From Escherichia coli (GTDB lineage Bacteria > Pseudomonadota > Gammaproteobacteria > Enterobacterales > Enterobacteriaceae): DNA of 64,000 bases. Shown here piece by piece: positions 1-23,519 of the stretch. The notes beneath the pieces are model-generated. The model ran no database searches. It was not told the origin of the DNA and saw only the letters and a list, made by a program, of their open reading frames with translations. The DNA is taken from the NCBI RefSeq assembly GCF_046105845.1, contig NZ_CP151004.1. One strand, written 5' to 3'. A program made the position numbers and the translations under genes. The first letter of the stretch is position 1; each line of letters begins with the position of its first letter.

Positions 1-874
1 TATCTATTTCCCTGACGATTTTAATAGTAAAAAAAAGTATCCTGCCATTATCAGCGCCCATCCAATTGGAAGCTGCAAAGAACAGACATCGGGTAGTGTG
101 TATGGTGCCGCCCTGGCAAAAGCTGGCTTTATCGTCATTGCTTTTGATGCCAGTTTTCAGGGAAGCAGCGGTGGGGAACCGCGTTATCTGGAAGATCCAA
201 CAATGCGAGTAAAAGACTTCAGCATTGTCGTTGATTACCTTACCAGCTTACCTTACGTTGATGCCGGGCGTATTGGTGTACTGGGTATTTGTGGTGGAGG
301 TGGATATGCCATTAATGCCGCAATGACAGAACGTCGAATTAAAGCTATTGGTACTGTCACGGGTGCAAACTACGGGCGTCTTATGCGTGAGGGATTTACA
401 GCGTTTAATCCTATCGGAGCACTCGAAGCAATGGCGCAACAAAGAACAGACGAAGCTAACGGCGCAAAACTTCGCGTAGATGATTTACTCCCCTCTTCTC
501 CAGATGCAGCTCTTGAAGCGGGATTAACAGAAATAGACCTTTTTGAAGCCACAGAATATTATCGTTCGCCACGAGGCTGTGCACCTAATGGGGTAAATCG
601 TTCGCTATTCTCACATCAGACTGTTGCCGTGGGTTGGGATGCATTTCATCTTGCAGAAGTCCTGTTAACTCAACCAATAATGGTTGTGGTGGGCGATAGA
701 GTGGGCGCATTTGGTGCCTACCGTGACGGCTGCGAAATTATTGGCCGCGCTGCCTCAAAACATAAAGAGCTGGTCGTGGTTGAAGGTTATTCACATTACG
801 ACCTGTATGATAAGCCAGAACCTGTGAAACAGGCGCTCGATAAATTAATTCCTTTTTATAAAACACATTTGTAA
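1..874 (+). CDS. alpha/beta-fold hydrolase (dienelactone-hydrolase-like), 5' end outside window
   Basis: Frame is open from position 2 with no stop until 872-874, so the N-terminus lies upstream of the window. Paralogous by eye to the 385-aa protein at 19629..20786 (shared GICGGGG/GICGWGG core and C-terminal KELVVV.G..H.DLYD). Confidence 0.75.
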   Translation, partial: IYFPDDFNSKKKYPAIISAHPIGSCKEQTSGSVYGAALAKAGFIVIAFDASFQGSSGGEPRYLEDPTMRVKDFSIVVDYLTSLPYVDAGRIGVLGICGGGGYAINAAMTERRIKAIGTVTGANYGRLMREGFTAFNPIGALEAMAQQRTDEANGAKLRVDDLLPSSPDAALEAGLTEIDLFEATEYYRSPRGCAPNGVNRSLFSHQTVAVGWDAFHLAEVLLTQPIMVVVGDRVGAFGAYRDGCEIIGRAASKHKELVVVEGYSHYDLYDKPEPVKQALDKLIPFYKTHL

Positions 875-1118
875 TAATCTTACAGGGAGATTCCTTATCT
901 CCCTGACATTTATCCTTTATTGACTACACAACAATAATGAAATTACTCAAAAAGAAATTTCATTAAAGAAACAAAAAAGCAGTAACTCAATCATTAAGAT
1001 TATTAGAAACCCTTTGAAGGGATTATAAATAAAGCCAGAAATCTTGGTTCCAAAGCTGGCAACAACTAACCAGTTAAAACATACGCATCAAAATCAGATA
1101 AACATTTGAGGTATTGTT

Positions 1119-2261
1119 ATGACAAATAAACACCCATCATTGTTTTCTCCTTTTATGCTGACAGAAAAAATAAAGCTACGTAATCGTATCGTTATGGCTC
1201 CTATGACGACCTGGTCAGCGAATCCTGATGGAACCATCTCTGAGCAAGAACTCGAATTTTATAAACGCCGCTCACAAAATGTTGGTTTAGTAATAACAGG
1301 ATGCACCTATGTCACGCCAAGCGGCATTGGGTTTACTCATGAATTTGCCGCGTATGACGACCGTTTCATTAACAGCCTTGAAAAGTTAGCAGCTGCAGCC
1401 AAAAGTGGCGGTGCTCCGGCTATTTTGCAGATTTTCCACGCCGGTAATAAAGCCATCCCGGAGCTTGTGCCAAATAACGATGTTATTAGTGCCAGCGCAT
1501 CAAGCGTAAAATCTGGTGATTTTATGAAGAGAGTGGTACAAAGCAGGGAAATGACTGAAAACGAAATTCAGGAAACCATTAGAGCATTCGGAGATGTCAC
1601 AAAAAGGGCGATTAAAGCAGGTTTTGATGGCGTTGAACTTCATGGTGCGCACGGATTCCTTCTGCAGAATTTCTTCTCCCCTCTATTTAACCAGCGTAAT
1701 GACCGATGGGGAGGAGATCTTGAAGGACGTATGCGCTTCCCGCTGGCCGTATTACAGGAAGTAAAAAATGTAGTCTATGAATATGCGACAAAGCCCTTTG
1801 CTATCGGTTACAGAATATCTCCTGAAGAATCTGTAACAGGGGGGCTGCGGATAGAGGATACTTATAAACTCCTTGATCGACTCATTTCATCCGGTATTTC
1901 GTATATACATACCTCGCTGGTCAGTATTAACGATAGCTACCCTGTTGAGTCGCCAAATGGCCCCCGAACTATTGAATTGATTTTAAATCATATTGCAGGC
2001 AGAGTGCCGGTAATCGCTGCAGGTAAAATACGCACACCGTCTCAGGCTCAAGAAGCAATTTCCGCTGGCCTGCCACTTGTTGCGATCGGTAAAGGGCTGG
2101 TGATAAATCCAGAATGGGTGACTTTAGCTGAATCAGGTAGAGGCCATGAAATTCAAACAACCCTTAATCCACAACTTGTTCCTGAATTAACCATTCCGGA
2201 TAAACTATGGGATCAAATTCAGGCATCGAAAGGAACTGGCTGGTTTCCGTTAATGGATTAA
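1119..2261 (+). CDS. NADH:flavin oxidoreductase, Old Yellow Enzyme-like TIM-barrel family
   Basis: 380-aa ORF with OYE-like motifs (RIVMAPMTT near N-terminus, HGAHGFLLQNFFSP, RNDRWGG). Family call from motif recognition only. Confidence 0.75.
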   Translation: MTNKHPSLFSPFMLTEKIKLRNRIVMAPMTTWSANPDGTISEQELEFYKRRSQNVGLVITGCTYVTPSGIGFTHEFAAYDDRFINSLEKLAAAAKSGGAPAILQIFHAGNKAIPELVPNNDVISASASSVKSGDFMKRVVQSREMTENEIQETIRAFGDVTKRAIKAGFDGVELHGAHGFLLQNFFSPLFNQRNDRWGGDLEGRMRFPLAVLQEVKNVVYEYATKPFAIGYRISPEESVTGGLRIEDTYKLLDRLISSGISYIHTSLVSINDSYPVESPNGPRTIELILNHIAGRVPVIAAGKIRTPSQAQEAISAGLPLVAIGKGLVINPEWVTLAESGRGHEIQTTLNPQLVPELTIPDKLWDQIQASKGTGWFPLMD

Positions 2262-2733
2262 ATATCTATTACTCTCCCGAGAGTAAAACTATCAAATCAA
2301 TGAGTAACCGATACAGCCTCACAAATTCTTTCAGATAATTAACCCGTCACTGCGGCACGTTCTCTCGTAAGGCGTGCCTGCAGTGTAATCCAGTATGTAT
2401 CTGGCATAGTTGACGGTTTAATAGAACTCAATTCCTCTCCCAGGTCACCAACAACGATATCTTGTATAACACCCCAGGAGATACGACATTATGATGAGAT
2501 GAGGTATGCTCCTCAGCGCCAATCAACGCCAGGGCTGGGCCAGTTTTGAGATCAGACTCATTCCCGGACTGACTTCAGGCGACATATATCAATGACGTTG
2601 GGGCAATAAAAGATAGCCGATGTAATACATCTATTCAAATTTGTGATACATGTCAAAAAATTGGTTGACCAAACTCGTTATTTATATAAGGGCACTTACG
2701 AAGTGCACTCTTTTTTAAAGCGAGGAAGTACCA

Positions 2734-2835
2734 ATGAAAGAGAATAAAGTACAGCAAATCAGTCATAAACTGATTAATATCGTTGTTTTTATCGCAATTG
2801 TAGAATACGCCTATTTATTTCTCCATTTCTATTAA
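2734..2835 (+). CDS. ykgR: small hydrophobic protein YkgR (33 aa)
   Basis: ATG at 2734 to TAA at 2833-2835 gives MKENKVQQISHKLINIVVFIAIVEYAYLFLHFY, below the ORF-track length cutoff. Matches my recollection of K-12 YkgR and sits next to ykgM as in K-12. Confidence 0.6.
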   Translation: MKENKVQQISHKLINIVVFIAIVEYAYLFLHFY

Positions 2836-3157
2836 TAACGGCAGTAAACTGTTCACTTCAGTGATATTTAAAATATGCATCCTCTCCCTTTTTGTAAGTA
2901 ATTATTATATCCGTGGGAGAGGAATACACGCTGTCAGGTAATCAATCATACTGCGATAAATCATCGGCCAGTAAAGTGGAGATAACCTCCATTCTCGAAA
3001 AAGCGAAACTATCATCAATCACTCATCCAGGCGTTTATGGGAGCGTCGCCAACGGCTGCTAACAATGCCAGACTTCCCCGTTGGGGAAATTCCACATACC
3101 ACAAATAGTCACAGGGATTGGGTGTTGAAATGATCCGGATGAGCATGTATCTTTATG

Positions 3158-3175
3158 GTTATGTTATAACATAAC
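3158..3175. promoter_or_regulatory. Zur box (palindrome GTTATGTTATAACATAAC) upstream of ykgM
   Basis: Perfect AT-rich palindrome about 10 bp upstream of the ykgM start; ykgM-ykgO is a known Zur-repressed operon. Confidence 0.7.
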
Positions 3176-3186
3176 AGGTAAAAATG

Positions 3187-3450
3187 ATGAAACCCAATAT
3201 CCATCCTGAGTATCGTACTGTGGTGTTCCATGACACCAGTGTTGATGAGTACTTTAAAATCGGCTCGACTATCAAAACAGACCGTGAGATTGAGCTGGAT
3301 GGCGTAACGTATCCGTACGTGACAATTGATGTCTCTTCGAAATCGCACCCGTTCTATACAGGGAAGCTGAGAACAGTAGCATCAGAAGGAAATGTTGCAC
3401 GGTTCACCCAACGTTTTGGTCGTTTTGTTAGCACGAAAAAGGGGGCGTGA
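3187..3450 (+). CDS. ykgM: 50S ribosomal protein L31 type B (zinc-independent paralog)
   Basis: Translation [62 protein letters not shown]... is an L31 sequence lacking the Zn-ribbon cysteines. Second ATG (3187) chosen; the ORF track starts at 3184. Confidence 0.9.
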
Positions 3451-3590
3451 TGAAAGTCCTTAACTCTCTGCGTACCGCAAAAGAACGCCATCCAGACTGT
3501 CAGATTGTGAAGCGAAAAGGACGGCTATATGTGATTTGTAAATCTAATCCACGTTTTAAGGCCGTTCAGGGTCGTAAGAAAAAACGTTGA
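3450..3590 (+). CDS. ykgO: 50S ribosomal protein L36 type B paralog
   Basis: 46-aa [49 protein letters not shown] whose ATG overlaps the ykgM stop (GTGATG); not in the ORF track. Confidence 0.85.
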
Positions 3591-3996
3591 TTCAAAATTC
3601 GACGGATTAATGATATTTGTCTGATTAATAATCAGACCTGATTAATGTTGGTGTATTTATTACACCAGCATTAATTTTCTTGGGGATGTATCTTCCTGTT
3701 CATTTAAGGTCAACTGCCTGACGTTTCTCTCCGAATATTCCATTATATTAATGTTGACTTGTTAACCAGGTGCGCCCTGTATGCTGGCATCAACTCTCTT
3801 TTAGACTGAACACGCCACTCAGTTTCCTCCCTTTGCGACGCAGCCTGCATTTACACTCAAACGGTTAAGATGATAAATGTGGTAAATCTGTTGGTACTGA
3901 CATAAAAACGTTTACGTCACAGGAACGGCCTGATCCACCGGTAACCCCATCGCCGACGTTCGAGTGCCAGTTAGAGTAACGCGCACAGATGACTGA

Positions 3997-4221
3997 ATGC
4001 AGTGCCCTGGCAAAGAGGCCATCGTTCCTGTGACAACTGGCAGTCTTCGTTTAACTTCACTTAATTTGGCTCTTAGGGGGCTTACCGGACAGATGACGTA
4101 CTTACACCTGTTTAATTTTTCATCACTTATTGGGATGAACACCCATAACCATTTTGTGCGGCATGTTAATCCATTAAAACACCTTACTGATTGGCAAATC
4201 ATCTTTAATTATGACTCATGA
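3997..4221 (+). CDS. small hypothetical protein (occupies the position of K-12 ykgL)
   Basis: 74-aa ORF between ykgO and ecpR, called by position and size only. An antisense ORF overlaps it; weak call. Confidence 0.25.
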   Translation: MQCPGKEAIVPVTTGSLRLTSLNLALRGLTGQMTYLHLFNFSSLIGMNTHNHFVRHVNPLKHLTDWQIIFNYDS

Positions 4222-4604
4222 TAGTTTTATATTCTATTTCTTATCATTTAAACTTGTTTTTTTACTAGTCCATCACACAACACATTAAGACTATTCCTAA
4301 CACCTCAGGGCAAAGTTCCTGGCTAATATAAAATGCAAGTAAGAATTGAACGTTATATTGCCAATAACCTTATGAAACTGAATGTCTTTTTCTTCTTATC
4401 AAAAAAGCAATATTTTCATTTTTTGTAAATATTGACTTAACCATGGAATTCCTTTTCTGTTCACATATTGACACTCATCAGGAAAAAAACATAAATTTAA
4501 ACCTAATCGAAATAATTAAAACTTAATCTCGTTTAACCTATATTGATATGTGCTACGTATCTTATTTACTTCCGATTTACTAAAGAAACTGAATGTACCT
4601 GTAA

Positions 4605-5216
<612 letters not shown>

Positions 5217-5290
5217 ACTCCAGGCAAGTTAGTTTTAAAAAATGACTCACAGGGACATCACGTCCTCAATTCAACTCGGGAAGAAAAGCA

Positions 5291-5878
5291 ATGAAAAAAA
5301 AGGTTCTGGCAATAGCTCTGGTAACGGTGTTTACCGGTACAGGTGTGGCGCAGGCTGCTGACGTAACAGCTCAGGCTGTAGCGACCTGGTCAGCAACAGC
5401 CAAAAAAGACACCACCAGTAAGCTGGTTGTGACGCCACTCGGTAGCCTGGCGTTCCAGTATGCCGAAGGCATTAAAGGTTTTAACTCACAGAAAGGTCTA
5501 TTTGACGTAGCTATCGAGGGTGACTCAACGGCTACCGCCTTTAAACTGACCTCACGTCTTATCACCAACACCTTAACCCAGTTGGATACCTCAGGTTCCA
5601 CACTGAATGTGGGCGTGGATTATAACGGCGCGGCAGTCGAAAAAACTGGCGATACCGTGATGATCGATACCGCCAACGGCGTACTGGGCGGCAACCTTAG
5701 CCCACTGGCTAACGGTTACAATGCCAGCAATCGTACCACCGCACAGGATGGTTTCACTTTCTCCATCATCAGCGGCACCACCAATGGTACCACCGCAGTA
5801 ACCGATTACAGCACTCTACCGGAAGGCATCTGGAGCGGCGACGTTAGCGTACAGTTCGACGCTACCTGGACCAGTTAA
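5291..5878 (+). CDS. ecpA: E. coli common pilus major pilin subunit
   Basis: 195 aa with signal peptide [22 protein letters not shown] and a Thr/Gly-rich pilin-like mature region; position after ecpR. Confidence 0.9.
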
Positions 5879-5933
5879 TCTCTCTGATGTACCAGCAGGG
5901 GTCCCCCCTGCTTTATTCCTGGACGGAATTGTT

Positions 5934-6602
5934 ATGAAAAAGCACCTTCTGCCTCTCACTCTGCTGTTTTCCGGAATATCTCCGGCCCAGGCGCTGGATG
6001 TCGGCGATATATCATCGTTTATGAACAGTGACAGCAGCACGCTGAGCAAAACGATCAAAAACAGTACCGACAGTGGTCGCCTCATCAATATCCGTCTCGA
6101 ACGGCTCTCTTCACCGCTTGACGACGGGCAGGTTATCGCAATGGACAAGCCGGATGAGTTGCTACTCACTCCCGCCAGCTTGCTGCTACCCGCCCAAGCC
6201 AGCGAAGTGATCCGCTTCTTCTATAAGGGACCCGCAGATGAAAAAGAGCGCTACTACCGCATTGTCTGGTTTGATCAGGCCCTCAGTGATGCGCAGCGCG
6301 ATAATGCCAACCGAAGCGCTGTAGCCACTGCTTCCGCCCGCATCGGCACCATTCTGGTCGTCGCCCCTCGCCAGGCGAACTACCACTTTCAGTACGCCAA
6401 CGGCTCCCTGACAAATACAGGAAATGCGACGCTGCGGATCCTCGCCTACGGCCCCTGCCTGAAAGCCGTCAATGGTAAGGAGTGTAAAGAGAATTACTAC
6501 CTGATGCCGGGCAAGTCGCGTCGTTTTACCCGCGTGGACACTGCGGATAACAAAGGACGGGTTGCACTTTGGCAGGGTGATAAGTTCATTCCCGTGAAAT
6601 AG
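5934..6602 (+). CDS. ecpB: ECP periplasmic chaperone
   Basis: 222 aa, signal peptide; shares the ...[19 protein letters not shown]... block with EcpE at 10755..11465; operon position. Confidence 0.88.
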
Positions 6603-6627
6603 ATAGCTGTGCAGATGGATAACGACA

Positions 6628-9153
6628 ATGCCTTTACGACGGTTCTCCCCAGGACTGAAAGCCCAGTTTGCCTTCGGCATGGTCTTTTTGTTCGTTCAGC
6701 CCGATGCCAGCGCTGCTGACATAAGTGCGCAGCAAATAGGTGGGGTGATTATTCCGCAGGCCTTCAGTCAGGCGCTTCAGGACGGCATGAGCGTCCCGCT
6801 CTATATTCATCTCGCCGGTAGCCAGGGTCGCCAGGACGATCAGCGAATCGGCAGCGCTTTTATCTGGCTGGATGATGGACAGCTACGCATCCGGAAAATA
6901 CAGCTTGAAGAGAGTGAAGATAACGCCAGTGTCAGCGAACAAACTCGACAACAGCTGATGGCTCTGGCGAACGCCCCGTTCAATGAGGCCCTTACCATCA
7001 CACTGACTGACAACGCGCAGCTGGATCTCAGCTTGCGCCAACTGCTGCTGCAGCTGGTGGTCAAGCGCGAAGCGCTTGGCACCGTACTACGCTCACGTAG
7101 CGAAGACATCGGGCAGTCCAGTGTTAACACCCTCAGCAGTAATCTGAGCTATAACTTCGGCATCTATAACAACCAGTTGCGTAACGGCGGGAGCAACACC
7201 TCCAGCTATCTGTCGCTGAATAACGTTACTGCGCTGCGCGAACATCACGTGGTGCTCGACGGCTCACTGTACGGGATTGGTAGCGGTCAACAGGACAGTG
7301 AATTATATAAAGCGATGTATGAACGCGATTTTGCCGGTCACCGATTTGCCGGTGGAATGCTCGACACCTGGAACTTGCAGTCCTTAGGGCCGATGACCGC
7401 CATTTCAGCAGGGAAGATTTACGGCCTTTCCTGGGGAAACCAGGCCAGCTCCACCATCTTCGACAGCAGCCAGTCGGCCACGCCAGTGATCGCCTTTTTA
7501 CCGGCGGCGGGCGAAGTACATCTCACCCGTGATGGCAGGCTACTAAGCGTTCAGAACTTCACCATGGGCAATCATGAAGTGGATACCCGGGGTCTACCGT
7601 ACGGTATTTACGATGTGGAAGTTGAGGTCATCGTTAACGGTCGCGTGATCAGCAAACGCACTCAACGGGTCAATAAGCTGTTTAGCCGGGGGCGCGGCGT
7701 CGGTGCACCACTGGCGTGGCAGATATGGGGCGGTAGCTTTCATATGGATCGCTGGTCGGAAAACGGGAAAAAGACGCGACCAGCCAAAGAGAGTTGGCTG
7801 GCAGGTGCCTCGACCTCCGGCTCACTGAGTACGCTTAGCTGGGCGGCAACGGGATATGGATACGATAATCAGGCCGTGGGTGAAACCCGTCTGACGCTGC
7901 CGCTTGGGGGGGCGATCAACGTTAACCTGCAAAATATGCTGGCCAGTGACAGCTCATGGAGCAGCATCGGCAGCATCAGCGCCACTCTACCGGGAGGCTT
8001 TAGTTCGCTGTGGGTTAATCAGGAAAAAACCCGCATTGGCAATCAATTGCGACGTAGCGATGCCGACAACCGTGCTATCGGCGGCACACTCAACCTGAAC
8101 TCACTGTGGTCGAAGCTGGGTACGTTCAGCATCAGCTACAATGATGACCGCCGCTACAACAGCCATTATTACACGGCAGATTACTATCAAAGTGTCTACA
8201 GCGGTACCTTTGGTTCGCTTGGCCTGCGGGCCGGTATTCAGCGCTATAACAACGGCGACAGCAGCGCCAATACAGGGAAATATATCGCTCTCGATCTCTC
8301 GCTACCACTGGGCAACTGGTTTAGCGCAGGGATGACCCATCAAAACGGCTACACCATGGCAAACCTGTCAGCACGCAAACAGTTTGATGAAGGAACCATT
8401 CGCACTGTTGGTGCCAATCTGTCACGAGCCATCTCCGGCGATACCGGTGATGACAAAACCCTCAGCGGTGGGGCGTATGCACAGTTCGACGCTCGTTACG
8501 CCAGCGGAACGCTGAACGTCAATAGCGCGGCGGACGGCTACATCAATACCAACTTGACCGCCAATGGCAGCGTCGGCTGGCAGGGTAAAAACATCGCTGC
8601 CAGCGGGCGGACTGATGGCAACGCTGGGGTGATATTCAACACCGGGCTGGAGGACGACGGTCAGATCAGCGCCAAAATCAACGGGCGGATTTTCCCGCTT
8701 AACGGCAAGCGTAACTATCTCCCGCTCTCTCCCTATGGAAGATATGAGGTGGAGTTACAGAACAGCAAAAACTCACTCGACAGCTACGATATCGTCAGCG
8801 GCCGCAAAAGCCATCTGACTCTCTATCCAGGCAATGTCGCTGTCATTGAGCCAGAGGTGAAGCAGATGGTTACCGTCTCCGGTCGTATCCGTGCGGAAGA
8901 CGGCACACTGCTGGCTAACGCACGGATTAACAACCATATCGACCGAACCCGAACCGATGAAAACGGCGAGTTTGTCATGGATGTGGACAAGAAATACCCC
9001 ACTATCGATTTTCGCTACAGTGGCAATAAAACCTGCGAAGTGGCACTGGAACTCAACCAGGCGCGCGGTGCCGTCTGGGTCGGTGATGTGGTCTGCAGCG
9101 GCCTCTCATCGTGGGCGGCGGTGACGCAGACAGGAGAAGAGAATGAGAGTTAA
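6628..9153 (+). CDS. ecpC: ECP outer-membrane usher
   Basis: 841-aa ORF with signal peptide, usher-like size and composition, operon position. Confidence 0.9.
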
Positions 9154-10786
9154 CCTACTGATAGCGATGATAATCTTTGCGCTAATCTGGCCTGCAACCG
9201 CGCTCAGAGCGGCAGTGAGCAAAACAACCTGGGCGGATGCTCCGGCACGCGAGTTTGTGTTTGTCGAAAACAACTCAGACGACAACTTTTTCGTCACGCC
9301 TGGCGGGGCGCTGGATCCGCGCCTGACCGGTGCCAACCGCTGGACCGGTTTAAAATACAATGGTTCAGGAACCATCTATCAGCAAAGTCTCGGCTACATT
9401 GATAACGGTTACAACACCGGCCTTTATACCAACTGGAAGTTTGATATGTGGCTGGAAAATTCACCAGTTTCATCTCCTTTAACTGGCTTGCGCTGCATCA
9501 ACTGGTACGCCGGGTGTAATATGACCACCAGTCTTATCCTGCCGCAAACCACCGACGCCAGTGGATTTTATGGCGCGACGGTGACCAGCGGCGGCGCGAA
9601 GTGGATGCACGGCATGTTGTCAGACGCGTTTTACCAGTATCTGCAACAAATGCCCGTCGGCAGCAGCTTTACAATGACCATCAATGCCTGCCAGACCTCT
9701 GTGAACTATGACGCCAGCAGCGGCGCACGCTGTAAGGATCAGGCCTCCGGCAACTGGTATGTTCGCAACGTCACCCATACGAAAGCAGCAAATCTACGGT
9801 TGATAAATACCCACTCGCTGGCGGAGGTGTTTATCAACAGCGACGGAGTACCGACTCTGGGCGAAGGGAACGCCGACTGCCGGACGCAAACCATCGGCAG
9901 CCGTTCAGGATTAAGTTGTAAGATGGTTAACTATACCCTGCAAACAAACGGACTCAGCAACACCTCAATCCATATCTTCCCGGCGATCGCCAACTCGTCG
10001 TTAGCCTCGGCCGTCGGGGCGTACGATATGCAGTTCAGTCTGAATGGCAGTTCATGGAAACCGGTGAGCAATACTGCCTATTACTACACCTTCAACGAGA
10101 TGAAGAGCGCAGACTCGATCTATGTTTTCTTCTCGAGCAACTTCTTTAAGCAGATGGTGAACCTCGGGATCAGCGATATCAACACCAAAGATCTATTCAA
10201 CTTTCGCTTTCAGAACACCACATCACCGGAGTCTGGCTGGTATGAATTTTCTACCTCCAACACGCTGATTATCAAACCCCGTGATTTCAGCATCAGTATT
10301 ATCTCCGATGAATATACTCAGACACCGTCGCGGGAGGGATATGTTGGCAGCGGCGAGTCGGCACTCGATTTCGGCTATATCGTAACCACCAGCGGTAAAA
10401 CAGCTGCCGACGAAGTGCTGATCAAGGTGACCGGACCCGCGCAGGTGATTGGCGGGCGCTCCTATTGTGTCTTCAGCTCCGATGATGGTAAGGCGAAAGT
10501 ACCGTTCCCGGCGACGCTTTCCTTTATTACCCGCAGCGGAGCTACAAAAACCTACGATGCCGGGTGCGATGATAGCTGGCGGGATATGACCGATGCGCTG
10601 TGGCTGACCACACCGTGGACTGATATCTCTGGCGAAGTGGGGCAGATGGATAAGACCACAGTCAAATTTTCGATTCCAATGGATAACGCCATTTCGCTGC
10701 GTACGGTAGATGATAACGGCTGGTTTGGCGAAGTCAGCGCTTCAGGAGAGATTCATGTTCAGGCGACGTGGCGTAACATTAACTAA
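9143..10786 (+). CDS. ecpD: ECP tip adhesin/polymerised subunit
   Basis: 547 aa, signal peptide, 11-bp overlap with the ecpC stop; operon position. Confidence 0.88.
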
Positions 10787-12107: not shown

Positions 12108-12130
12108 ATATGCAATAATTAATTGCACTG

Positions 12131-12317: not shown

Positions 12318-12342
12318 ATGGCGCTGTATTTGCGCCATTTTT
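12318..12342. terminator. bidirectional hairpin terminator between ykgJ and yagU
   Basis: AAAAATGGCGC-TGTATTT-GCGCCATTTTT: perfect stem flanked by an A-run and a T-run, immediately 3' of yagU (minus strand). Confidence 0.55.
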
Positions 12343-12355
12343 ATCATTCAATGCA

Positions 12356-13376: not shown

Positions 13377-14066
13377 ATGAGCAACCAAGGCGAATACCCC
13401 GAAGATAATCGGGTTGGGAAGCACGAGCCGCACGATTTTAGTTTGACCCGTCGCGATCTGATTAAAGTCAGCGCCGCAACGGCGGCGACCGCCGTGGTTT
13501 ATCCTCATTCTACGCTTGCAGCAAGCGTTCCGGCAGCTACACCCGCGCCCGAGATAATGCCCCTGACACTTAAGGTGAACGGCAAAACCGAGCAGTTGGA
13601 CGTTGATACCCGAACCACGCTACTGGACGCTTTGCGTGAAAATCTGCATCTGATCGGTACCAAGAAAGGTTGCGATCACGGGCAGTGCGGAGCCTGTACC
13701 GTGCTGGTCAATGGTCGCAGGCTTAATGCCTGCCTGACGCTTGCAGTCATGCATCAGGGGGCCGAGATCACCACCATTGAAGGCCTGGGTTCACCAGAGA
13801 ATCTTCACCCCATGCAGGCGGCCTTTATCAAGCATGATGGCTTCCAGTGCGGCTACTGCACCTCCGGGCAAATTTGCTCATCAGTAGCGGTGCTAAAAGA
13901 GATTCAGGACGGCATTCCCAGTCACGTCACGGTCGATTTGGTTTCCCCTCCAGAAAGAACTGCCGATGAGATCCGTGAACGTATGAGCGGCAACATCTGT
14001 CGCTGTGGTGCATACGCTAACATCCTTGCCGCCATTGAAGATGCTGCGGGGGAGATAAAATCATGA
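13377..14066 (+). CDS. paoA: periplasmic aldehyde oxidoreductase, [2Fe-2S] subunit with Tat signal
   Basis: 229 aa; twin-arginine motif TRRDLIK; ferredoxin-type cysteine clusters ([24 protein letters not shown]). Confidence 0.9.
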
Positions 14067-15019
14067 AGGCGTTTACCTATGAACGAGTGAACACCCCGGC
14101 CGAGGCGGCACTTAGCGCTCAGCGCGTACCCGGCGCAAAATTTATCGCTGGCGGGACCAATCTGCTGGACCTGATGAAGCTGGAAATTGAAACGCCCACC
14201 CACCTTATCGATGTGAACGGCCTCGGGCTCGATAAGATTGAAGTGACCGACGCGGGTGGGCTGCGCATCGGCGCACTGGTACGGAACACCGACCTGGCGG
14301 CTCACGAGCGCGTGCGTCGTGATTACGCGGTACTCTCCCGCGCCCTGCTCGCTGGCGCGTCTGGTCAGTTACGTAATCAGGCAACCACCGCAGGTAATCT
14401 GCTCCAGCGCACGCGCTGCCCCTATTTTTACGACACCAATCAGCCCTGCAATAAGCGCCTGCCCGGGAGCGGCTGCGCGGCACTTGAAGGCTTTAGCCGT
14501 CAGCACGCGGTGGTAGGCGTAAGCGAAGCCTGCATTGCCACCCATCCGAGCGATATGGCGGTCGCAATGCGGTTGCTGGATGCGGTAGTGGAAACCATCA
14601 CGCCGGAGGGAAAGACTCGCAGTATCACACTGGCTGATTTTTATCACCCACCGGGGAAAACGCCGCACATTGAAACCGCCCTGCTTCCCGGTGAGCTTAT
14701 CGTTGCGGTGACGTTACCTCCGCCGCTCGGCGGAAAACATATCTACCGCAAGGTGCGCGATCGCGCCTCCTACGCCTTTGCTCTGGTGTCGGTCGCGGCG
14801 ATTATCCAGCCAGACGGCAGCGGGCGCGTCGCACTGGGCGGAGTAGCTCATAAGCCCTGGCGCATTGAGGCTGCGGATGCTCAGCTATCCCAGGGGGCGC
14901 AGGCCGTGTATGACGCGCTGTTCGCCAGCGCCCATCCCACCGCTGAAAACACCTTTAAACTCCTGTTGGCGAAGCGAACGCTTGCCTCCGTACTGGCTGA
15001 AGCGAGGGCACAGGCATGA
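14063..15019 (+). CDS. paoB: aldehyde oxidoreductase FAD-binding subunit
   Basis: 318 aa; start overlaps the paoA stop (ATGA coupling); CO-dehydrogenase flavoprotein-like. Confidence 0.9.
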
Positions 15020-17214
15020 AATTTGATAAACCCGCAGGGGAAAACCCGATCGATCAGCTGAAGGTTGTCGGTCGTCCCCATGACCGCATCGACGGACCGC
15101 TGAAAACTACTGGCACGGCACGCTACGCCTACGAATGGTATGAAGAAGCTCCCAACGCCGCCTATGGTTATATCGTCGGTTCCGCCATTGCCAAAGGATC
15201 CCTCACCGCCCTCGATACGGACGCCGCGCAAAAAGCGCCGGGCGTACTGGCTGTCATTACCGCCAGTAACGCCGGGGCACTCGGCAAAGGCGACAAAAAC
15301 ACCGCCAGGCTGTTAGGCGGCCCCACTATTGAGCACTATCATCAGGCCATTGCGCTGGTAGTGGCTGAGACCTTCGAACAGGCGCGAGCGGCGGCCTCGC
15401 TGGTGCAGGCGCACTATCGCCGTAATAAAGGAGCTTACTCCCTGGCGGACGAGAAACAGGCCGTCAGTCAGCCGCCGGAAGACACGCCCGATAAAAATGT
15501 TGGTGACTTTGACGGGGCTTTCACCTCCGCTGCGGTGAAGATTGATGCTACCTACACGACCCCGGACCAGAGCCATATGGCGATGGAGCCGCATGCCTCG
15601 ATGGCCGTCTGGGATGGAAATAAGCTTACTCTCTGGACCTCAAATCAGATGATTGACTGGTGCCGCACCGATCTGGCAAAAACGCTGAAAGTGCCCGTGG
15701 AGAATGTGCGTATTATCTCCCCGTATATCGGCGGAGGGTTTGGCGGCAAGCTGTTCCTGAGAAGCGATGCGCTGCTGGCGGCCCTCGCCGCCCGTGCGGT
15801 GAAACGTCCGGTTAAAGTGATGCTCCCCCGCCCCACTATTCCCAATAACACCACGCACCGCCCCGCCACCCTTCAGCACTTGCGTATCGGTACTGACCAG
15901 AGCGGGAAAATCACCGCTATCTCACATGAAAGCTGGTCCGGAAACCTGCCCGGCGGCACGCCGGAAACGGCGGTACAGCAAAGCGAATTACTCTACGCCG
16001 GAGTGAGTCGTCATACCGGCCTGCGGCTCGCCACGCTTGATTTGCCGGAAGGGAACGCCATGCGTGCGCCCGGCGAAGCCCCCGGTCTGATGGCGCTCGA
16101 AATCGCGATCGATGAACTGGCGGAAAAAGCGGGCATCGATCCCGTCGAGTTTCGCATCCTGAATGACACTCAGGTTGACCCCGCCGACCCGACGCGCCGC
16201 TTCTCTCGCCGTCAGCTTATCGAGTGCTTGCGCACCGGAGCGGATAAATTTGGCTGGAAGCAGCGCAACGCCACACCCGGACAGGTGCGCGACGGGGAGT
16301 GGCTAGTCGGCCACGGCGTCGCAGCGGGCTTTCGCAATAATCTGCTGGAAAAATCGGGTGCGCGGGTTCATCTCGAACAAAACGGCACCGTTACCGTGGA
16401 AACGGACATGACCGATATTGGCACTGGCAGCTACACCATTCTGGCCCAGACGGCAGCGGAAATGCTTGGCGTACCGCTGGAGCAGGTTGCGGTTCACCTC
16501 GGCGATTCCAGTTTCCCGGTTTCTGCGGGGTCTGGTGGACAATGGGGCGCGAATACCTCCACCTCCGGCGTTTACGCCGCCTGTGTGAAGCTTCGCGAAA
16601 TGATTGCCTCGGCAGTCGGGTTTGATCCTGAGCAGTCGCAGTTTGCCGACGGCAAGATTACCAACGGTACCCGAAGCGCCATGCTACATGAGGCCACCGC
16701 AGGCGGCAGACTGACAGCGGAAGAAAGCATTGAATTCGGAACACTGAGCAAGGAGTACCAGCAGTCGACCTTTGCCGGGCATTTTGTGGAGGTCGGCGTG
16801 CATAGCGCGACGGGAGAAGTTCGGGTCCGGCGTATGCTCGCTGTGTGTGCTGCAGGACGCATCCTGAATCCGAAAACTGCACGCAGCCAGGTCATTGGCG
16901 CAATGACTATGGGCATGGGCGCGGCACTGATGGAGGAGCTGGCGGTGGATAACCGTTTGGGCTACTTCGTTAATCACGATATGGCGGGGTATGAGGTTCC
17001 GGTCCATGCGGATATCCCAAAACAGGAGGTGATTTTCCTGGATGATACCGACCCCATATCCTCCCCGATGAAGGCCAAAGGTGTCGGTGAGCTGGGCCTG
17101 TGCGGCGTGAGCGCGGCTATCGCCAACGCGGTGTATAACGCCACCGGTATTCGGGTACGGGATTATCCCATCACTCTGGATAAGCTGCTCGATAAGCTGC
17201 CGGATGTGGTTTAA
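15016..17214 (+). CDS. paoC: aldehyde oxidoreductase molybdopterin-binding catalytic subunit
   Basis: 732 aa; xanthine-dehydrogenase-family large subunit; start overlaps the paoB stop. Confidence 0.9.
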
Positions 17215-17223
17215 GGAGGAACA

Positions 17224-18180
17224 ATGTCATACCCACTTTTTGACAAAGACGAGCACTGGCATAAGCCAGAGCAGGCGTTTCTCACCGATGACCACCAGGC
17301 CATTCTGCGCTTCGCCGTAGAGGCGCTAATGTCCGGTAAAGGAGCGGTGCTGGTGACGCTGGTGGAAATACGCGGCGGCGCGGCGCGCCCGCTCGGGGCG
17401 CAGATGGTGGTGCGCGAAGATGGCCGTTACTGCGGTTTTGTCTCTGGCGGCTGCGTGGAGGCCGCTGCCGCTTTTGAAGCGCTGGAGGTGATGGGCTCAG
17501 GCCGCGATCGCGAAGTTCGCTATGGCGAAGGTTCACCGTGGTTTGACATCGTTCTGCCCTGCGGCGGTGGGATCACGCTGACGCTCCATAAACTACGCTC
17601 GGCACAGCCTCTGCTCGCCGTGCTGAACCGCCTGGAACAGAGAAAACCGGCGGGTCTGCGCTACGATCCGCAAGCTCAATCGCTGGTGTGCCTGCCCACG
17701 CAAACCCGGACGGGCTGGAATCTCAATGGCTTTGAGGTGGGGTTCAGGCCATGCGTCAGGCTGATGATTTACGGACGTTCTCTTGAGGCGCAGGCAACCG
17801 CGAGTCTTGCAGCAGCCACAGGCTATGACAGCCATATCTTCGATCTTTTTCCGGCCTCAGCCAGCGCTCAGATCGATACCGATACGGCGGTCATTTTGCT
17901 GTGCCATGATCTCAACCGGGAGCTGCCAGTGTTGCAGGCCGCGCGAGAAGCAAAACCCTTTTATCTCGGCGCATTGGGCAGCTATCGAACCCACACGTTA
18001 CGTCTGCAAAAGCTCCACGAGCTGGGATGGTCCAGGGAGGAAACAACGCAAATCCGGGCACCCGTCGGGATATTCCCCAAAGCCCGGGATGCGCATACTC
18101 TGGCACTCTCCGTGCTGGCAGAAGTCGCCTCTGTACGTCTCCATCAGGAGGAGGATTCATGCCTGCCCCCGTCGTCCTGA
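17224..18180 (+). CDS. paoD: molybdenum cofactor insertion chaperone (XdhC family)
   Basis: 318 aa immediately after paoC; XdhC/CoxI-like. Confidence 0.85.
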   Translation: MSYPLFDKDEHWHKPEQAFLTDDHQAILRFAVEALMSGKGAVLVTLVEIRGGAARPLGAQMVVREDGRYCGFVSGGCVEAAAAFEALEVMGSGRDREVRYGEGSPWFDIVLPCGGGITLTLHKLRSAQPLLAVLNRLEQRKPAGLRYDPQAQSLVCLPTQTRTGWNLNGFEVGFRPCVRLMIYGRSLEAQATASLAAATGYDSHIFDLFPASASAQIDTDTAVILLCHDLNRELPVLQAAREAKPFYLGALGSYRTHTLRLQKLHELGWSREETTQIRAPVGIFPKARDAHTLALSVLAEVASVRLHQEEDSCLPPSS

Positions 18181-18245
18181 TCCTTGCGGCCGGGCGTGGA
18201 GAGCGCTTTCTCGCCTCCGGGGGAAATACCCATAAATTAAGAGAA
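18159..18245 (+). pseudogene. 5' stub of a MobA/MocA-like molybdenum-cofactor nucleotidyltransferase gene
   Basis: RBS AGGAGGAGG then ATG at 18159 overlapping the paoD stop. First ~27 aa (MPAPVVLILAAGRGERFLASGGNTHKL) fit the N-terminal NTP-transferase motif; the frame then runs into the convergent MFS gene with no further family signal. 3' boundary approximate. Confidence 0.4.
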
Positions 18246-18359
18246 AAATCTGCAGTAGTCGTTTTAGAAAATCACCTAAATCGTTTAAAAGAGCGCCCAA
18301 CCCATAGTGGGCGCTCATCGCCTTGTGTGACTTATTCAGCAACGCGCACCCTCGCCGGA

Positions 18360-19553
18360 CTAAAGCGCACCGGCCTTCTGGCGTGCGGTAACAAAGGTCA
18401 GTACGCCAGCGCAAAGGAGCAGCACGCTACTCATAGCAAACGTGCTCTGCCAGCCAAGGCGGTCAAATACGATGCCTCCTGCTGTTGATCCAAGGGCGAT
18501 GGCGAGCTGAATCACCGCGACCATGAGCCCGCCTCCGGCTTCGGCGTTGTCAGGCAACGTACGCGCAATCCATGTCCACCATCCGGTTGGCGCGGCGGTG
18601 GCCAGCATGCCCCAGAGTCCTAACAGCAGCGAGACCGTCCAGACGTGATGCCCGGTCAGCATCAGACCGATAGCAATGACGGCCATCAGTCCGGGTATGG
18701 CCATCAGCGTGGGGTAGAATTTTCTGTTGAGAAATGCCGAAACAACCAGCGTGCCAATAAAACCGGCCACGCCGATAATCAGCAAAATCAACGACAAGCC
18801 TAAGGAATTAACCCGTGTCACCGACTCCAGAAACGGGCGCACATAGGTGAATAGTGCAAACTGCCCCATGAAAAACAGGCAGCAGGCTATCATGCCGACC
18901 ACAACCATGCGGCGGCTAAATAAGCGGAATACCGCGCCACATGAAGTGTGGCTTTTATTCGCATCCATGCTTGGCAGGCTGATGCACTGCCAGATAAAGG
19001 CGACAACCGCGATGGGCACCAGGCACAAGAAAGCGCCTCGCCATCCGACCGTAGCCCCCAGATAGCTTCCCAGCGGTGCGGCCACGACCGTCGCCAGCGC
19101 ATTACCGGCGTTGAAAATTGCCAGCGCACGCGTGACCTGATGCTGCGGCACCAGACGAATCGCCGTTGCCGCTGACATCGACCAGAATCCGCCAATAGCC
19201 ACACCAATCATCGCACGACCGACCATATACATCAGATAACTGGAAGCCAGCGCAATAATAAGCCCCGATACGGCCATCAGAACCGTCATCCCCAGCAGCA
19301 GGAACTTACGATTCATCTTTCCAGCTAGCGTTGAAAGCGTCAGGCTGGTCAGAACCGCCAGCGCGCCGGAGATAGCAATCCCCTGCCCTGCCAGCCCCTC
19401 CGTCACGCCTAAATCGCGGGTAATCGGCGTGAGCAGGCTGACGGGCATAAATTCAGAAGCAATCAGCACAAACACGCACAGGGTCATGGCAAAAATACCG
19501 CCCCAGTATGCGCGCTGATGATGAGGTGATAGTGTTTGGCTTAGTGTCGACAT
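18360..19553 (-). CDS. MFS transporter (12-TM, sugar/drug efflux-like)
   Basis: 397 aa, highly hydrophobic with repeated TM helices; hairpin GAGCGCCCA...TGGGCGCTC lies just 3' of it at about 18290-18316. Confidence 0.8.
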   Translation of the reverse strand: MSTLSQTLSPHHQRAYWGGIFAMTLCVFVLIASEFMPVSLLTPITRDLGVTEGLAGQGIAISGALAVLTSLTLSTLAGKMNRKFLLLGMTVLMAVSGLIIALASSYLMYMVGRAMIGVAIGGFWSMSAATAIRLVPQHQVTRALAIFNAGNALATVVAAPLGSYLGATVGWRGAFLCLVPIAVVAFIWQCISLPSMDANKSHTSCGAVFRLFSRRMVVVGMIACCLFFMGQFALFTYVRPFLESVTRVNSLGLSLILLIIGVAGFIGTLVVSAFLNRKFYPTLMAIPGLMAVIAIGLMLTGHHVWTVSLLLGLWGMLATAAPTGWWTWIARTLPDNAEAGGGLMVAVIQLAIALGSTAGGIVFDRLGWQSTFAMSSVLLLCAGVLTFVTARQKAGAL

Positions 19554-19628
19554 AGTGAAATTTCACAAAGATCAGGATAAAAGCCACCAGCCTATGGCCG
19601 GTGGCTTTGCATCAATTCAGGAGAGGTT

Positions 19629-20786
19629 TTATTTCAGTTTGGTCTGGAAAAATTGTTCGAACTTCGCGAAAGGTATTTTTCCGGCCACGTTATCGTACAG
19701 GTCCACGTGATTTGCCCCTGGTACCACCACCAACTCTTTGTCTTTACTGCCAACCGCCTTGTAAGCATCTTCAGCAAAATAGCGTGAATGTGCTTTCTCA
19801 CCGGTCACAATCAGCGTCGGAATGGTGATTTCACTGGCGTAGCTCAACAGCGGCATATTCATAAATGACAGCGGCATCGTTGCCGTCCACGCCCCGGTAG
19901 AGTTAACGGAACGTTCGTGGAAGCCGCGCGGCATGCGATAGTAGTCAAAGAACTCTTTCAGTACCGGATGAGGATTTGCCGGCAGCGTTTCTGGCAGAAT
20001 GCGCTCGCCAGCACTGACCTTGCCGTTGCTATCGACATTAATATCATGACCACCGTGAGCGAACGTTCCGCTCTGCGCATCCTGCCAGCGCTGTTCATTC
20101 AGATATTGCAGAACGGCACGACGGTCGGCGGTAGAATAACGGTCTTTGCCATCCCCCACACCATGACCCATCGCCCGGCTCATGTCATACATCACGCTGG
20201 TAGCTACCGCTTTAACGCGGGTATCCATCGCCACGTCGTTCAGCGCCATGCCGCCCCAGCCACAAATACCGAGCAGCCCGATACGGTTGCGATCTACCTC
20301 TTTTTGCAGCCCTAAGAAATCCACCGCCGCGCTGAAATCTTCAGTGTTGATATCCGGTGAGGCGACGTTTCGCGGATAGCCGCCGCTTTCCCCGGTGTAA
20401 GAAGGATCGAACGCCAGGGTAACAAACCCTCGTTCCGCCAGCGTCTGCGCATACAGGCCGCTGGATTGCTCTTTCACCGCGCCAAATGGCCCACTGACCG
20501 CAATCGCCGCCAGCTTGCGATCGCCACGGTCTTTAGGCAGGTAAAGATCGCCCACTAAGGTGATGCCATATCGGTTCGGGAACGAGACTTTACGGTGATC
20601 GACTTTCTGGCTCTCGGCGAACGTTTTATCCCATTTATCTGTCATGGACACAGGGGCATTAGGATTGGTTGAATCAGCATAACTCATTGTCGTGACCCCA
20701 CTTAATGATGCGAAAAGCAGCATGGTCGGCATCGCGGTTTTTAGCGTTCGGGTGAAGGCTTTCATAAAAATCCCCATAAAAAACAA
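19629..20786 (-). CDS. secreted alpha/beta-fold hydrolase (dienelactone-hydrolase-like)
   Basis: 385 aa; signal peptide (MKAFTRTLKTAMPTMLLFASLSGVTTMSYA, so the true start may be the internal Met); paralog of the partial ORF at 1..874. Confidence 0.8.
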   Translation of the reverse strand: MFFMGIFMKAFTRTLKTAMPTMLLFASLSGVTTMSYADSTNPNAPVSMTDKWDKTFAESQKVDHRKVSFPNRYGITLVGDLYLPKDRGDRKLAAIAVSGPFGAVKEQSSGLYAQTLAERGFVTLAFDPSYTGESGGYPRNVASPDINTEDFSAAVDFLGLQKEVDRNRIGLLGICGWGGMALNDVAMDTRVKAVATSVMYDMSRAMGHGVGDGKDRYSTADRRAVLQYLNEQRWQDAQSGTFAHGGHDINVDSNGKVSAGERILPETLPANPHPVLKEFFDYYRMPRGFHERSVNSTGAWTATMPLSFMNMPLLSYASEITIPTLIVTGEKAHSRYFAEDAYKAVGSKDKELVVVPGANHVDLYDNVAGKIPFAKFEQFFQTKLK

Positions 20787-20951
20787 CAGAGAGATACAGG
20801 TTTCCGACGGACAACGCTGCGGTGCTTTACTTTGATGGGGTCATTATAGTGAGCAGAATTAGTGCTGATTAGGGGGCGATTAATGCTAAGATTAATACCA
20901 TATTGTTATAAATTAATGCGGAGATTGCCGGCATGAAGGGGGGATGTTTCA

Positions 20952-21836
20952 ATGGCGAAAAGGGAGAACTACAACGAGCTGTACCTGTTTATGCAGGTGG
21001 TGCGGGAAGGCAGCTTTACCGCAGCGGCTCAGCGGCTGGGTCTTGCTCAGTCAGGAGTCAGCCGTTCTGTTCGCGAGCTTGAAGAAAGGCTCGGCGTCCA
21101 GCTGCTAGTGCGCACCACGCGTAAACTGTCGCTGACACAAGCAGGCGAGCAGCTCTACCAGAAGACGGCATCTGGATTTGAAATGTTAGATCTTGGGCTT
21201 GCCACGCTGGCGCACTATCGAGAGACGCCCTCCGGCACGGTGCGTATCAATGCCAGCCAGCACGCGATTGATAAATGCCTGCTGCCAAAGCTGGCGGTAT
21301 TTAAACAGCGATATCCTGATATCCGGCTTGAACTGATAAATGAGAGCCGGTTCGTCGATATCATCGAGGAAAGATTCGATGCAGGTGTCCGCCTGGGGCC
21401 TGAAGTCGGCCAGGGTATGGTCGCGGTACGCATCACGCCCGATATGGAGATGGCAATTGTGGGGACTCCGGAACATTTTCGTCGCTATGGTTTTCCGCAA
21501 ACCCCGGCGGATTTAAAGGCGCATCCCTGTATCGCCTATCAGTTTGCCGACGGCAGCGTATACCAGTGGGAACTCAATCAGGATGATAAAAAAATCACTC
21601 ATCGCCCTGAAGGGCAATGGGCCTTATCCGACAGCTATATGGAAGCAGAAGCCGCCCGGCTGGGCCTCGGATTGGCCTATGTTCCTGTTGAACTGGTCGC
21701 GGATGATTTAGAACACGGTAAGCTTATCAGGGTGTTGCAGCGTTACAGCCTGCGAATGGAGGGATTGTTTCTCTATTACCCTCATCGCAACGTCTCCCCC
21801 GCCCTGCGGATGGTCATTGATACATTGAAAATCTGA
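20952..21836 (+). CDS. LysR-family transcriptional regulator
   Basis: 294 aa; N-terminal HTH (FTAAAQRLGLAQSGVSRSVRELEERLGVQLL) typical of LysR; divergent from the hydrolase/MFS pair. Confidence 0.85.
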   Translation: MAKRENYNELYLFMQVVREGSFTAAAQRLGLAQSGVSRSVRELEERLGVQLLVRTTRKLSLTQAGEQLYQKTASGFEMLDLGLATLAHYRETPSGTVRINASQHAIDKCLLPKLAVFKQRYPDIRLELINESRFVDIIEERFDAGVRLGPEVGQGMVAVRITPDMEMAIVGTPEHFRRYGFPQTPADLKAHPCIAYQFADGSVYQWELNQDDKKITHRPEGQWALSDSYMEAEAARLGLGLAYVPVELVADDLEHGKLIRVLQRYSLRMEGLFLYYPHRNVSPALRMVIDTLKI

Positions 21837-23515: not shown

Positions 23516-23519
23516 CTTG

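Follow-up and report, generated by a model that had tools for sequence, protein, structure and literature searches.

At opposite ends of the ecp-pao block, in a 64,000-nucleotide stretch of an Escherichia coli chromosome (contig NZ_CP151004.1; the window, below), lie two genes for alpha/beta hydrolases, and the locus raises the question of whether its two ends descend from one duplicated unit or were assembled separately. The first gene, hyd1 (2-874, plus strand), enters the window as a fragment encoding the C-terminal 290 of 306 residues, with its start codon and divergent LysR partner outside; the second, hyd2 (19629-20765, minus strand), encodes a predicted exported hydrolase of 378 residues, signal peptide included. 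An earlier reading made from the letters alone (the sequence-only reading) had described these genes as paralogues that, each lying next to a ykgR-type sequence, reinforce a larger duplicated unit. We consider it likely instead that two hydrolase modules were acquired independently, each with its own LysR-family regulator and accessory genes, and that the second ykgR is a separate remnant nearby.

The two ends of the ecp-pao block are unlikely to be copies of one unit

In the orientation of the window, which we take to be the reverse of the K-12 map order, the left end reads LysR (-), hyd1 (+), an NADH-dependent OYE flavin oxidoreductase (1119-2261, +; annotated as such, Pfam Oxidored_FMN 262 bits) and ykgR (2734-2835, +; intact, 33 codons, translated as MKENKVQQISHKLINIVVFIAIVEYAYLFLHFY and a stop). 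The right end reads MFS transporter (18360-19553, -), hyd2 (-), LysR (20952-21836, +; 294 residues, below LysR294) and a second, truncated ykgR' (+). Gene order was taken from open reading frames (ORFs) and from the annotation of a 99%-identical genome. Of 5426 complete E. coli genomes, 5310 match window region 1-22000, with identities of up to 99.0%.

As had been noted from the sequence, hyd1 and hyd2 share core and C-terminal motifs, namely a GxCxG cysteine elbow (GICGGGG and GICGWGG, respectively) and HxDLYD (SHYDLYD and NHVDLYD), and they are paralogues in the broad sense that both belong to the YcjY/PA2218 family. From end to end they are 32% identical (104/323; E = 2e-43, 140 bits), the kind of low identity that the sequence-only reading had itself named beforehand as counting against a duplication, and for their LysR partners the figure is 29%. 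Database proteins that resemble hyd1, or hyd2, more than the pair resemble each other number in the thousands, and hyd1 is closer to YcjY (225 bits, 41% identity over 295 residues) than to hyd2.

If one ancient segmental duplication had made two units of LysR, hydrolase and ykgR bracketing the ecp-pao block, we would expect comparable divergence along the unit, collinear order and orientation, and copies that are each other's closest relatives. None of this was found. Divergence is discordant, with 32% and 29% amino acid identity for the hydrolases and the LysR proteins versus 91% and 79% nucleotide identity for the two parts of the ykgR repeat; the hydrolase similarity falls on opposite strands whereas the ykgR repeats are direct, and OYE at one end corresponds to MFS at the other; and hyd1 is nearer YcjY than hyd2. 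Sensitive blastn and tblastx comparisons of 1-4700 with 18181-23900 recovered only pieces of ykgR, ykgO and ykgL and the protein-level hydrolase match, so that nucleotide similarity between the ends, far from outlining a larger duplicated unit, amounts to about 270 nt. A 33-nt inverted match between 945-977 and 22614-22646 (E = 0.001) was judged insignificant.

The duplication has in its favor a family-related hydrolase with a divergent LysR at both ends and a ykgR-type sequence at both ends, in direct orientation and 19.3 kb apart. However, the pairing of a divergent LysR with a family hydrolase recurs across the family, and the resemblance of the two ends is thus explained without a local duplication. 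Moreover, homology between the hyd2 gene cluster and other genera stops before the truncated ykgR, and the two modules differ in their taxonomic affinities and in how often they occur in E. coli (2115 vs 912 of 5426 genomes). We regard the duplication as extremely improbable.

These differences are apparent in the hyd1 module, which consists of LysR, hyd1 and the OYE flavin reductase beside two aldo-keto reductases (AKRs). Upstream of hyd1, beyond the window, the 99%-identical genome carries fdeC, two AKR genes, a LysR gene (297 aa) and a second LysR gene (308 aa); the latter, LysR308 (HTH_1 69 bits, LysR_substrate 103 bits), is divergent from hyd1 and supplies the upstream LysR partner whose existence had earlier been left in question. 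The nearest relatives of hyd1 outside E. coli are mostly from Cupriavidus, Burkholderia, Paraburkholderia, Pseudomonas and Stenotrophomonas (76-82% amino acid identity), and divergent LysR genes accompany its orthologues in Paraburkholderia and Pantoea as well. Within E. coli, hyd1 and OYE (GC about 44%) were found together in 2115 of the 5426 genomes; B2 strains, CFT073 and IHE3034 among them, have this pair and lack the hyd2 cluster with the truncated ykgR. The nearest relatives of hyd2 (GC about 53%) outside E. coli are instead Enterobacterales, at 88-98% amino acid identity, in Kluyvera, Serratia, Buttiauxella, Citrobacter, Leclercia, Klebsiella and Enterobacter.

Several observations weigh against entirely separate histories. 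Both modules combine a divergent LysR with a family hydrolase and both are near ykgR sequences, and the LysR-hydrolase pair may have a very ancient common ancestry as a unit. In Serratia-like contigs (L008/L009, 3151-10313), the LysR294, hyd2 and MFS genes adjoin genes for a NUDIX protein, two AKRs (283 and 329 aa) and a LysR, of which the AKR, AKR and LysR match those beside the hyd1 module of E. coli at 94%, 94% and 90% identity. Modules that E. coli carries on either side of the ecp-pao block are therefore neighbors elsewhere, which suggests that the accessory modules of hyd1 and hyd2 travelled together there and may share some history.

On the reading of independent acquisition, two separately acquired modules and a small decayed repeat merely happen to give the ecp-pao block a symmetric look. 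This look does not show that a large duplication made the block, or that the block is a bounded island. The region is a patchwork of accessory modules of an ordinary kind, in a variable stretch, and its GC content is strongly mosaic too: 41-44% across hyd1-OYE-ykgR, 59-61% in paoBCD, 52-56% in the hyd2 cluster, and 35% in the region of the truncated ykgR and the small ORF after it (stretches compared: 1-3000, 14001-18000 and 22001-23000).

A decayed ykgR repeat beside the second hydrolase

A ykgR-type sequence does lie near each hydrolase, as the sequence-only reading had stated: the intact gene 1.86 kb after hyd1, with OYE between, and the truncated one 1.28 kb from the start of hyd2, with LysR294 between. 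At the left end, ykgR is followed by ykgM-ykgO (3187-3590, +) and the pseudogene ykgL (about 3626-3851, -), as placed by ORFs and annotation. Two stretches of this locus recur in blastn comparisons at the right end, both in direct orientation and far beyond chance: 2767-2883, the 3' two-thirds of ykgR with 48 nt downstream, matches 22048-22164 (90.6%, E = 9e-39), and 3554-3703, comprising the last 37 nt of ykgO, a hairpin and the 3' end of ykgL on the opposite strand, matches 22164-22313 (78.8%, E = 3e-31).

The resulting ykgR'-ykgO'-ykgL' relic (22045-22314, +) runs from about codon 12 of ykgR to its stop, then through 48 nt, the last 30 nt or so of ykgO, the hairpin and some 80 nt of the ykgL 3' end. 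Its ykgR part (about 22045-22117) translates as KLIIIVVFVAIVEYAYLFLHLY and a stop, against KLINIVVFIAIVEYAYLFLHFY and a stop in intact ykgR, and the end of ykgO is joined directly to the 48 nt that follow (AVQRRKKKY and stop, against AVQGRKKKR and stop). The second copy has no complete 33-codon YkgR frame and no in-frame start codon, and PGAP annotates it as a partial YkgR without N-terminus. It lacks a promoter, ykgM and the greater part of ykgO (2884-3553 in the first copy). The relic is therefore the decayed remnant, about 270 nt long, of a second ykgR-ykgMO-ykgL locus, truncated at both ends and internally deleted. The missing part includes a palindrome, ATGTTATAACATAAC, at 3150-3176 directly 5' of ykgM, which is the Zur box of ykgM-ykgO, a zinc-regulated operon.

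Between the start of the relic and the nearer bound of the homology that the hyd2 cluster shows with other genera lie 124 nt, and in 80-plus to about 90 loci from other taxa no ykgR, ykgM or ykgO was found beside that cluster; a lone YkgM-like match (L068), 47% identical, lies about 2 kb from hyd2. Lying outside this homology and with no ykgR by the LysR gene elsewhere, the relic is not part of the cluster, and we rejected the idea that the two travelled together. The relic probably stems from a small duplication that took place long ago within the lineage and then underwent deletions and decay, unrelated to the hydrolase paralogy. We weighed this origin against a foreign one, in which some other enterobacterial species supplied the relic as a piece of its orthologous ykgR-ykgMO-ykgL locus, introduced by recombination or with a thrW-associated island. 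The setting is suggestive of the latter: the relic sits in the highly variable paoD-thrW interval by fragments of an integrase and an SDR gene, in other strains it lies directly beside the junction of an AbiE/dpt island at about 22280, the adjoining hyd2 cluster is itself horizontally mobile, and 79-91% nucleotide identity is in the range of orthologues between genera. On the other hand, no donor sequence was found for it, ykgR is beside the LysR gene in none of the 80-plus loci from other genera, and the two-fold gap in divergence (9% where the first copy is constrained as coding sequence, 21% where both would be unconstrained) fits neutral decay within the genome. A foreign source thus seems possible to us, though the less probable of the two.

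The LysR/hyd2/MFS cassette is mobile among Enterobacterales

LysR294, hyd2 and the MFS gene form a three-gene cassette that is horizontally mobile among chromosomes and plasmids of the Enterobacterales. DNA homology with other genera ends at 18239 and 21921, and these bounds, 3.7 kb apart, are the coordinates we give for the cassette (18239-21921, minus strand). Its DNA is 91.5% identical to that of Kluyvera genomosp. 1 over 18343-21921, 86.5% to that of Serratia-like contigs over 18343-21841 (plus 18239-18338), 81% to that of Buttiauxella, and 74-79% to those of Klebsiella, Enterobacter and Hafnia. The LysR gene divergent from hyd2-MFS is kept in Buttiauxella, K. michiganensis, Serratia-like contigs, Kluyvera, Hafnia, E. 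cloacae and Psychrobacter, in unrelated surroundings. The cassette is also plasmid-borne, at 73-78% identity, in K. pneumoniae, Salmonella enterica, Kosakonia and Pantoea; among E. coli plasmid matches, two 4.9-Mb records (H117 and H118) are evidently chromosomes filed as plasmids, and 30-kb and 64-kb "plasmids" with the cassette at 99% identity may be chromosomal fragments. The cassette was found in 912 of 5426 E. coli genomes when queried jointly with the relic (18300-22320).

Of the accompanying proteins, LysR294 matches HTH_1 (83 bits) and LysR_substrate (121 bits) and is 83-98% identical to the regulators beside hyd2 in other Enterobacterales. The transporter, a 397-aa frame that RefSeq gives as 375 aa (18360-19487), matches MFS_1 (133 bits) and has relatives beside hyd2 at 73-90% amino acid identity in Enterobacterales and 43-64% in other Proteobacteria. 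Its best matches are efflux families (NepI, sugar efflux, Cmx/CmrA and AraJ), none at equivalog level; the best NCBIfam match, to the purine ribonucleoside efflux pump NepI (NF007578), reaches 294.3 bits against a cut-off of 584, and identity with that pump was ruled out.

hyd2 is predicted to be an exported cysteine hydrolase

The open frame of hyd2 (19629-20786, -) spans 385 codons from a TTG, but is over-extended; the likely start is the ATG at 20765, which gives 378 aa and has a GGGGA ribosome-binding sequence 5 nt before it. The resulting N-terminus is MKAFTRTLKTAMPTMLLFASLSGVTTMSYA followed by DS, a predicted signal peptide of the form MKAF...MSYA with DS after it. In a 96-member family alignment, most hyd2-type sequences have a Sec, lipoprotein or twin-arginine leader before a conserved WDKTF start, and hyd1/YcjY-type sequences have no leader or N-terminal extension. 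We conclude from these features that hyd2 is predicted to be exported via a Sec signal peptide and hyd1 to be without one, and that the secreted character which the sequence-only reading assigned to hyd2 is upheld by the 378-aa frame and by the leaders of most orthologues.

The RefSeq model of hyd2 weighs against export: it has 352 aa (19629-20687) and starts after the signal peptide, which would make hyd2 cytoplasmic, with the upstream 26 codons as untranslated leader. PGAP places the start at MSYADS in several genomes. Against this model, a typical n/h/c signal sequence, closing in SYA before DS, is present at the head of the longer frame, orthologues across phyla have Sec, lipoprotein or Tat leaders at the same position, and 378-aa forms predominate among the hyd2 clusters of protein databases. 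We therefore find a cytoplasmic hyd2 very unlikely.

The solved members of the family are YcjY (PDB 5XB6) and Pseudomonas aeruginosa PA2218 (PDB 2HDW), and both hydrolases show significant full-length similarity to them. For hyd2, phmmer gave E = 2.9e-124 with 2HDW and E = 1.3e-43 with 5XB6; for hyd1, the closest structure is 5XB6 (E = 1.4e-66), ahead of 2HDW (E = 4.6e-44), and with no N-terminal extension hyd1 is predicted to be a cytoplasmic hydrolase of the YcjY subfamily. The AlphaFold model of hyd2 (pLDDT 81.6, pTM 0.83) is an alpha/beta hydrolase with a lid that matches both structures, and Foldseek returned 2HDW first (E = 4e-41) and 5XB6 second (E = 1.7e-26). The next neighbors, DcsB, GrgF, PET46, monoglyceride lipases and feruloyl esterases, are serine esterases, thioesterases and lipases of 15-22% identity, too remote for naming a substrate; the substrate prediction by structural homology that had been envisaged for the hydrolases thus ended in generic enzymes.

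Both proteins have the family's cysteine in the GxCxG nucleophile elbow and the histidine in HxDLYD, and the family pattern further includes an acid after strand beta-7. In hyd2 these are Cys168, His353 and Glu323, whose putative catalytic roles we assign from position; across the 96 family members the nucleophile is conserved in 92, the histidine in 93 and Glu/Asp at 323 in 90. The variability of the acid is a point against this assignment: Glu occurs in 75 of the 96, Asp in 15 and Ser in two, and YcjY itself has Ser. Aspartate replaces the cysteine in four of the 96 (L022, L058, L061 and L078), a count that may include alignment or ORF artefacts.

A conserved core in the LysR294-hyd2 intergenic region

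LysR adjoins hyd2 divergently in all Enterobacterales loci examined, and the 186-nt region between LysR294 and hyd2 contains a core of about 80 nt (20835-20913, minus strand) that is nearly invariant in an alignment of nine Enterobacterales, with diverging flanks. It holds an AT-rich dyad, ATTTATAACAATATGrTATTAAT, and a second, AGCAC-N5-CTGCT, over a weak -35 element; the -10 element at 20848-20843 is TATAAT in eight of the nine sequences and TACAAT in Buttiauxella. We presume that this core comprises the LysR-binding site together with the hyd2 promoter, a pattern that fits what would be expected of an activator-dependent promoter under LysR control. A consensus promoter scan did not pick up the hyd2 promoter, and the phylogenetic footprint was more informative.

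Family relationships and possible function of the cassette

What might such a cassette do? YcjY is like hyd1 and hyd2 in family, fold, GxCxG elbow and HxDLYD motif, and differs from both in setting: ycjY lies elsewhere on the chromosome in an operon with mpaA, of the peptidoglycan recycling regulon, whereas hyd1 is followed by the OYE reductase, and hyd2 is only 34% identical to YcjY (152 bits) and predicted to be exported. PA2218 is far closer to hyd2, with 58-59% identity in the structural alignment and a TM-score of 0.92 normalised to the target, and like hyd2 it has an N-terminal extension before the catalytic domain. PA2219 (opdE) and PA2220 presumably encode a membrane protein and a LysR regulator. 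As for the regulation of ycjY, the third E. coli paralogue, this gene is divergent from that of the LysR protein PgrR/YcjZ, which controls it (PMC5934670). In one review, ycjY appears in a list of GxCxG proteins that were at one time put forward as possible polyhydroxybutyrate polymerases (PMC3709699).

More distant comparisons were less informative. Searches of the literature for YcjY, PA2218, PA2219/PA2220 and the PDB codes found no functional characterisation, and PA2218 (a "hypothetical protein") and YcjY are solved structures without assigned function, both of which weigh against the function proposed below. The dienelactone hydrolases (ClcD type, PF01738) are alpha/beta hydrolases with a cysteine nucleophile in a GxCxG elbow. 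The Pfam DLH profile matches hyd1 at 25.3 bits (gathering score 21) over profile positions 12-123 of 217 only, the N-terminal half, and does not match hyd2 at E <= 0.001; hyd1 and hyd2 are larger than dienelactone hydrolases and have a lid insertion, and their structural neighbors beyond the YcjY/PA2218 family are, unlike those enzymes, serine esterases, lipases and thioesterases. A UilS-type quorum-quenching N-acyl-homoserine lactone lactonase (NF047920, cut-off 400 bits) was also considered and set aside, with 74.8 bits for hyd1 and 63.9 bits for hyd2 in the N-terminal half only.

The genomic context offers a further line of evidence. The second hydrolase indeed lies in a divergent LysR / hydrolase / MFS arrangement typical of inducible detoxification or catabolic units, as had been proposed. 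Among 83 loci with hyd2 homologues from many phyla, neighbors within 2.5 kb were LysR (38), MFS (21), cyclophilin-like (15), hexapeptide acetyltransferase (15), AKR (12), flavodoxin/FMN reductase (10), cupin (9), CMD (8) and SDR (6) proteins. At five of the hyd2-homologue loci, two family copies lie side by side. The AKR, cupin, CMD, flavodoxin and SDR neighbors in other phyla suggest detoxification of an electrophilic or aromatic ester or lactone compound.

Our preferred reading is that the cassette encodes a LysR-induced periplasmic cysteine esterase/lactonase with an MFS transporter. The LysR protein would bind the conserved dyads of the 186-nt divergent region and, on sensing a small-molecule inducer, would activate the weak-minus-35/TATAAT promoter of hyd2-MFS; hyd2 would leave the cytoplasm by its Sec signal peptide and, in the periplasm, cleave an ester, lactone or thioester bond through Cys168-His353-Glu323; and the MFS protein would carry substrate or product across the inner membrane. 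The direction of transport and the identity of the inducer are guesses, which weakens this scheme.

A rival to it is catabolic: in the periplasm, hyd2 would split an extracellular ester to yield a product of use to the cell, and the MFS protein would take that product up. Predicted export of hyd2 would place hydrolysis ahead of any cytoplasmic step, and the nearest structural neighbors of known function (feruloyl/chlorogenate esterases, monoglyceride lipases and polyester hydrolases) all release nutrients. Yet the best matches of the MFS protein are the efflux families named above, no downstream catabolic genes accompany the cassette, and the recurrent neighbors elsewhere are of redox or detoxification type. 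We find the catabolic role less probable than the preferred reading, though still a serious alternative.

The exported PA2218-type subfamily, to which hyd2 belongs, is conserved at 53-67% amino acid identity and reaches beyond Enterobacterales into Bacteroidota, Campylobacterota, Veillonellales, Elusimicrobia, Gastranaerophilales and a Methanobacterium metagenome-assembled genome (MAG). Its members almost always have a Sec, lipoprotein or Tat leader, many are from gut samples, and they recur beside LysR/AraC regulators, MFS, AKRs, cupins, CMD-family proteins and flavodoxins; the homologues of hyd2 itself in remote lineages (the Methanobacterium MAG, Elusimicrobia, Gastranaerophilales, Bacteroidota, Veillonella and Campylobacter; many from gut metagenomes) are 53-61% identical. 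Conceivably, though we think it rather unlikely, this exported subfamily is functionally uniform, a periplasmic cysteine hydrolase for one widespread small-molecule ester or lactone; if so, the E. coli cassette would be a portable resistance or utilisation determinant for that compound. The subfamily is the sole point of wider interest at this locus, being widespread, strongly conserved, solved in structure (PA2218) and plasmid-borne.

History of the paoD-thrW interval

The cassette lies in the interval between paoD and thrW, whose fullest form is that of O157:H7: paoD, cassette, relic, small ORF, and an intact SDR gene divergent from an intact gene for a 299-aa LysR (L090, 7684-9404). K-12, according to the sequence-only reading, has here only a LysR pseudogene, yagP, plus the CP4-6 prophage. 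It is true that a LysR fragment is all that is left, but yagP comes from the C-terminus of another LysR, matching residues 188-299 of the 299-aa protein of O157:H7 at 96% identity, and the possibility that it is a remnant of LysR294 was rejected at 29% identity. The yagP/CP4-6 interval of K-12 is the same chromosomal interval as that of the window, with the same sequence as far as a stub behind paoD (about 18159-18238) and then once more starting from thrW; after the stub, K-12-type genomes jump into codon 188 of the second LysR and are without MFS, hyd2, LysR294, relic and SDR gene. It follows from this jump that yagP is the deletion stump of a different regulator, and the deletion that left it removed about 6 kb including the cassette. 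The yagP finding thereby clarifies the history of the interval.

The stub itself is a 27-codon frame, MPAPVVLILAAGRGERFLASGGNTH..., that opens 22 nt before the paoD stop and is identical in K-12-type genomes to one point, after which the haplotypes wholly diverge. It looks like the N-terminal stub of a MobA/MocA-type nucleotidyltransferase gene formerly behind paoD; Pfam returned no match for it, nor for the small ORF at 22520-22798.

The window strain has a deletion of its own, which runs from the middle of the SDR gene (truncated, 22964-23515, -; 183 of 240 aa) into an integrase fragment beside thrW and has removed the 299-aa LysR. That fragment, the C-terminal part of a tyrosine integrase (23474-23686, +), abuts the 3' end of thrW, tRNA-Thr(CGT) (23701-23776, -), and is the scar of an element once integrated at thrW. 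The closest-matching genome, like others, has an island directly after the relic (window-equivalent about 22280; L001, 30271-38001) with genes for an AbiEi/AbiEii toxin-antitoxin system, HTH proteins and dptFGH (phosphorothioation-dependent restriction); the window strain is without it.

Other features of the window

According to ORFs and annotation, the block between the two modules consists of ecpRABCDE (4626-11465, +), ykgJ and yagU, and paoABCD (13377-18180, +), and beyond thrW the chromosome continues with proA, proB and phoE from 23891. The window holds a third alpha/beta hydrolase gene at 28100-29344 (-), a 414-aa ORF that, by its size and its position between crl-side genes and gpt, may be FrsA; the match of hyd1 to the FrsA model is marginal (E = 9e-4).

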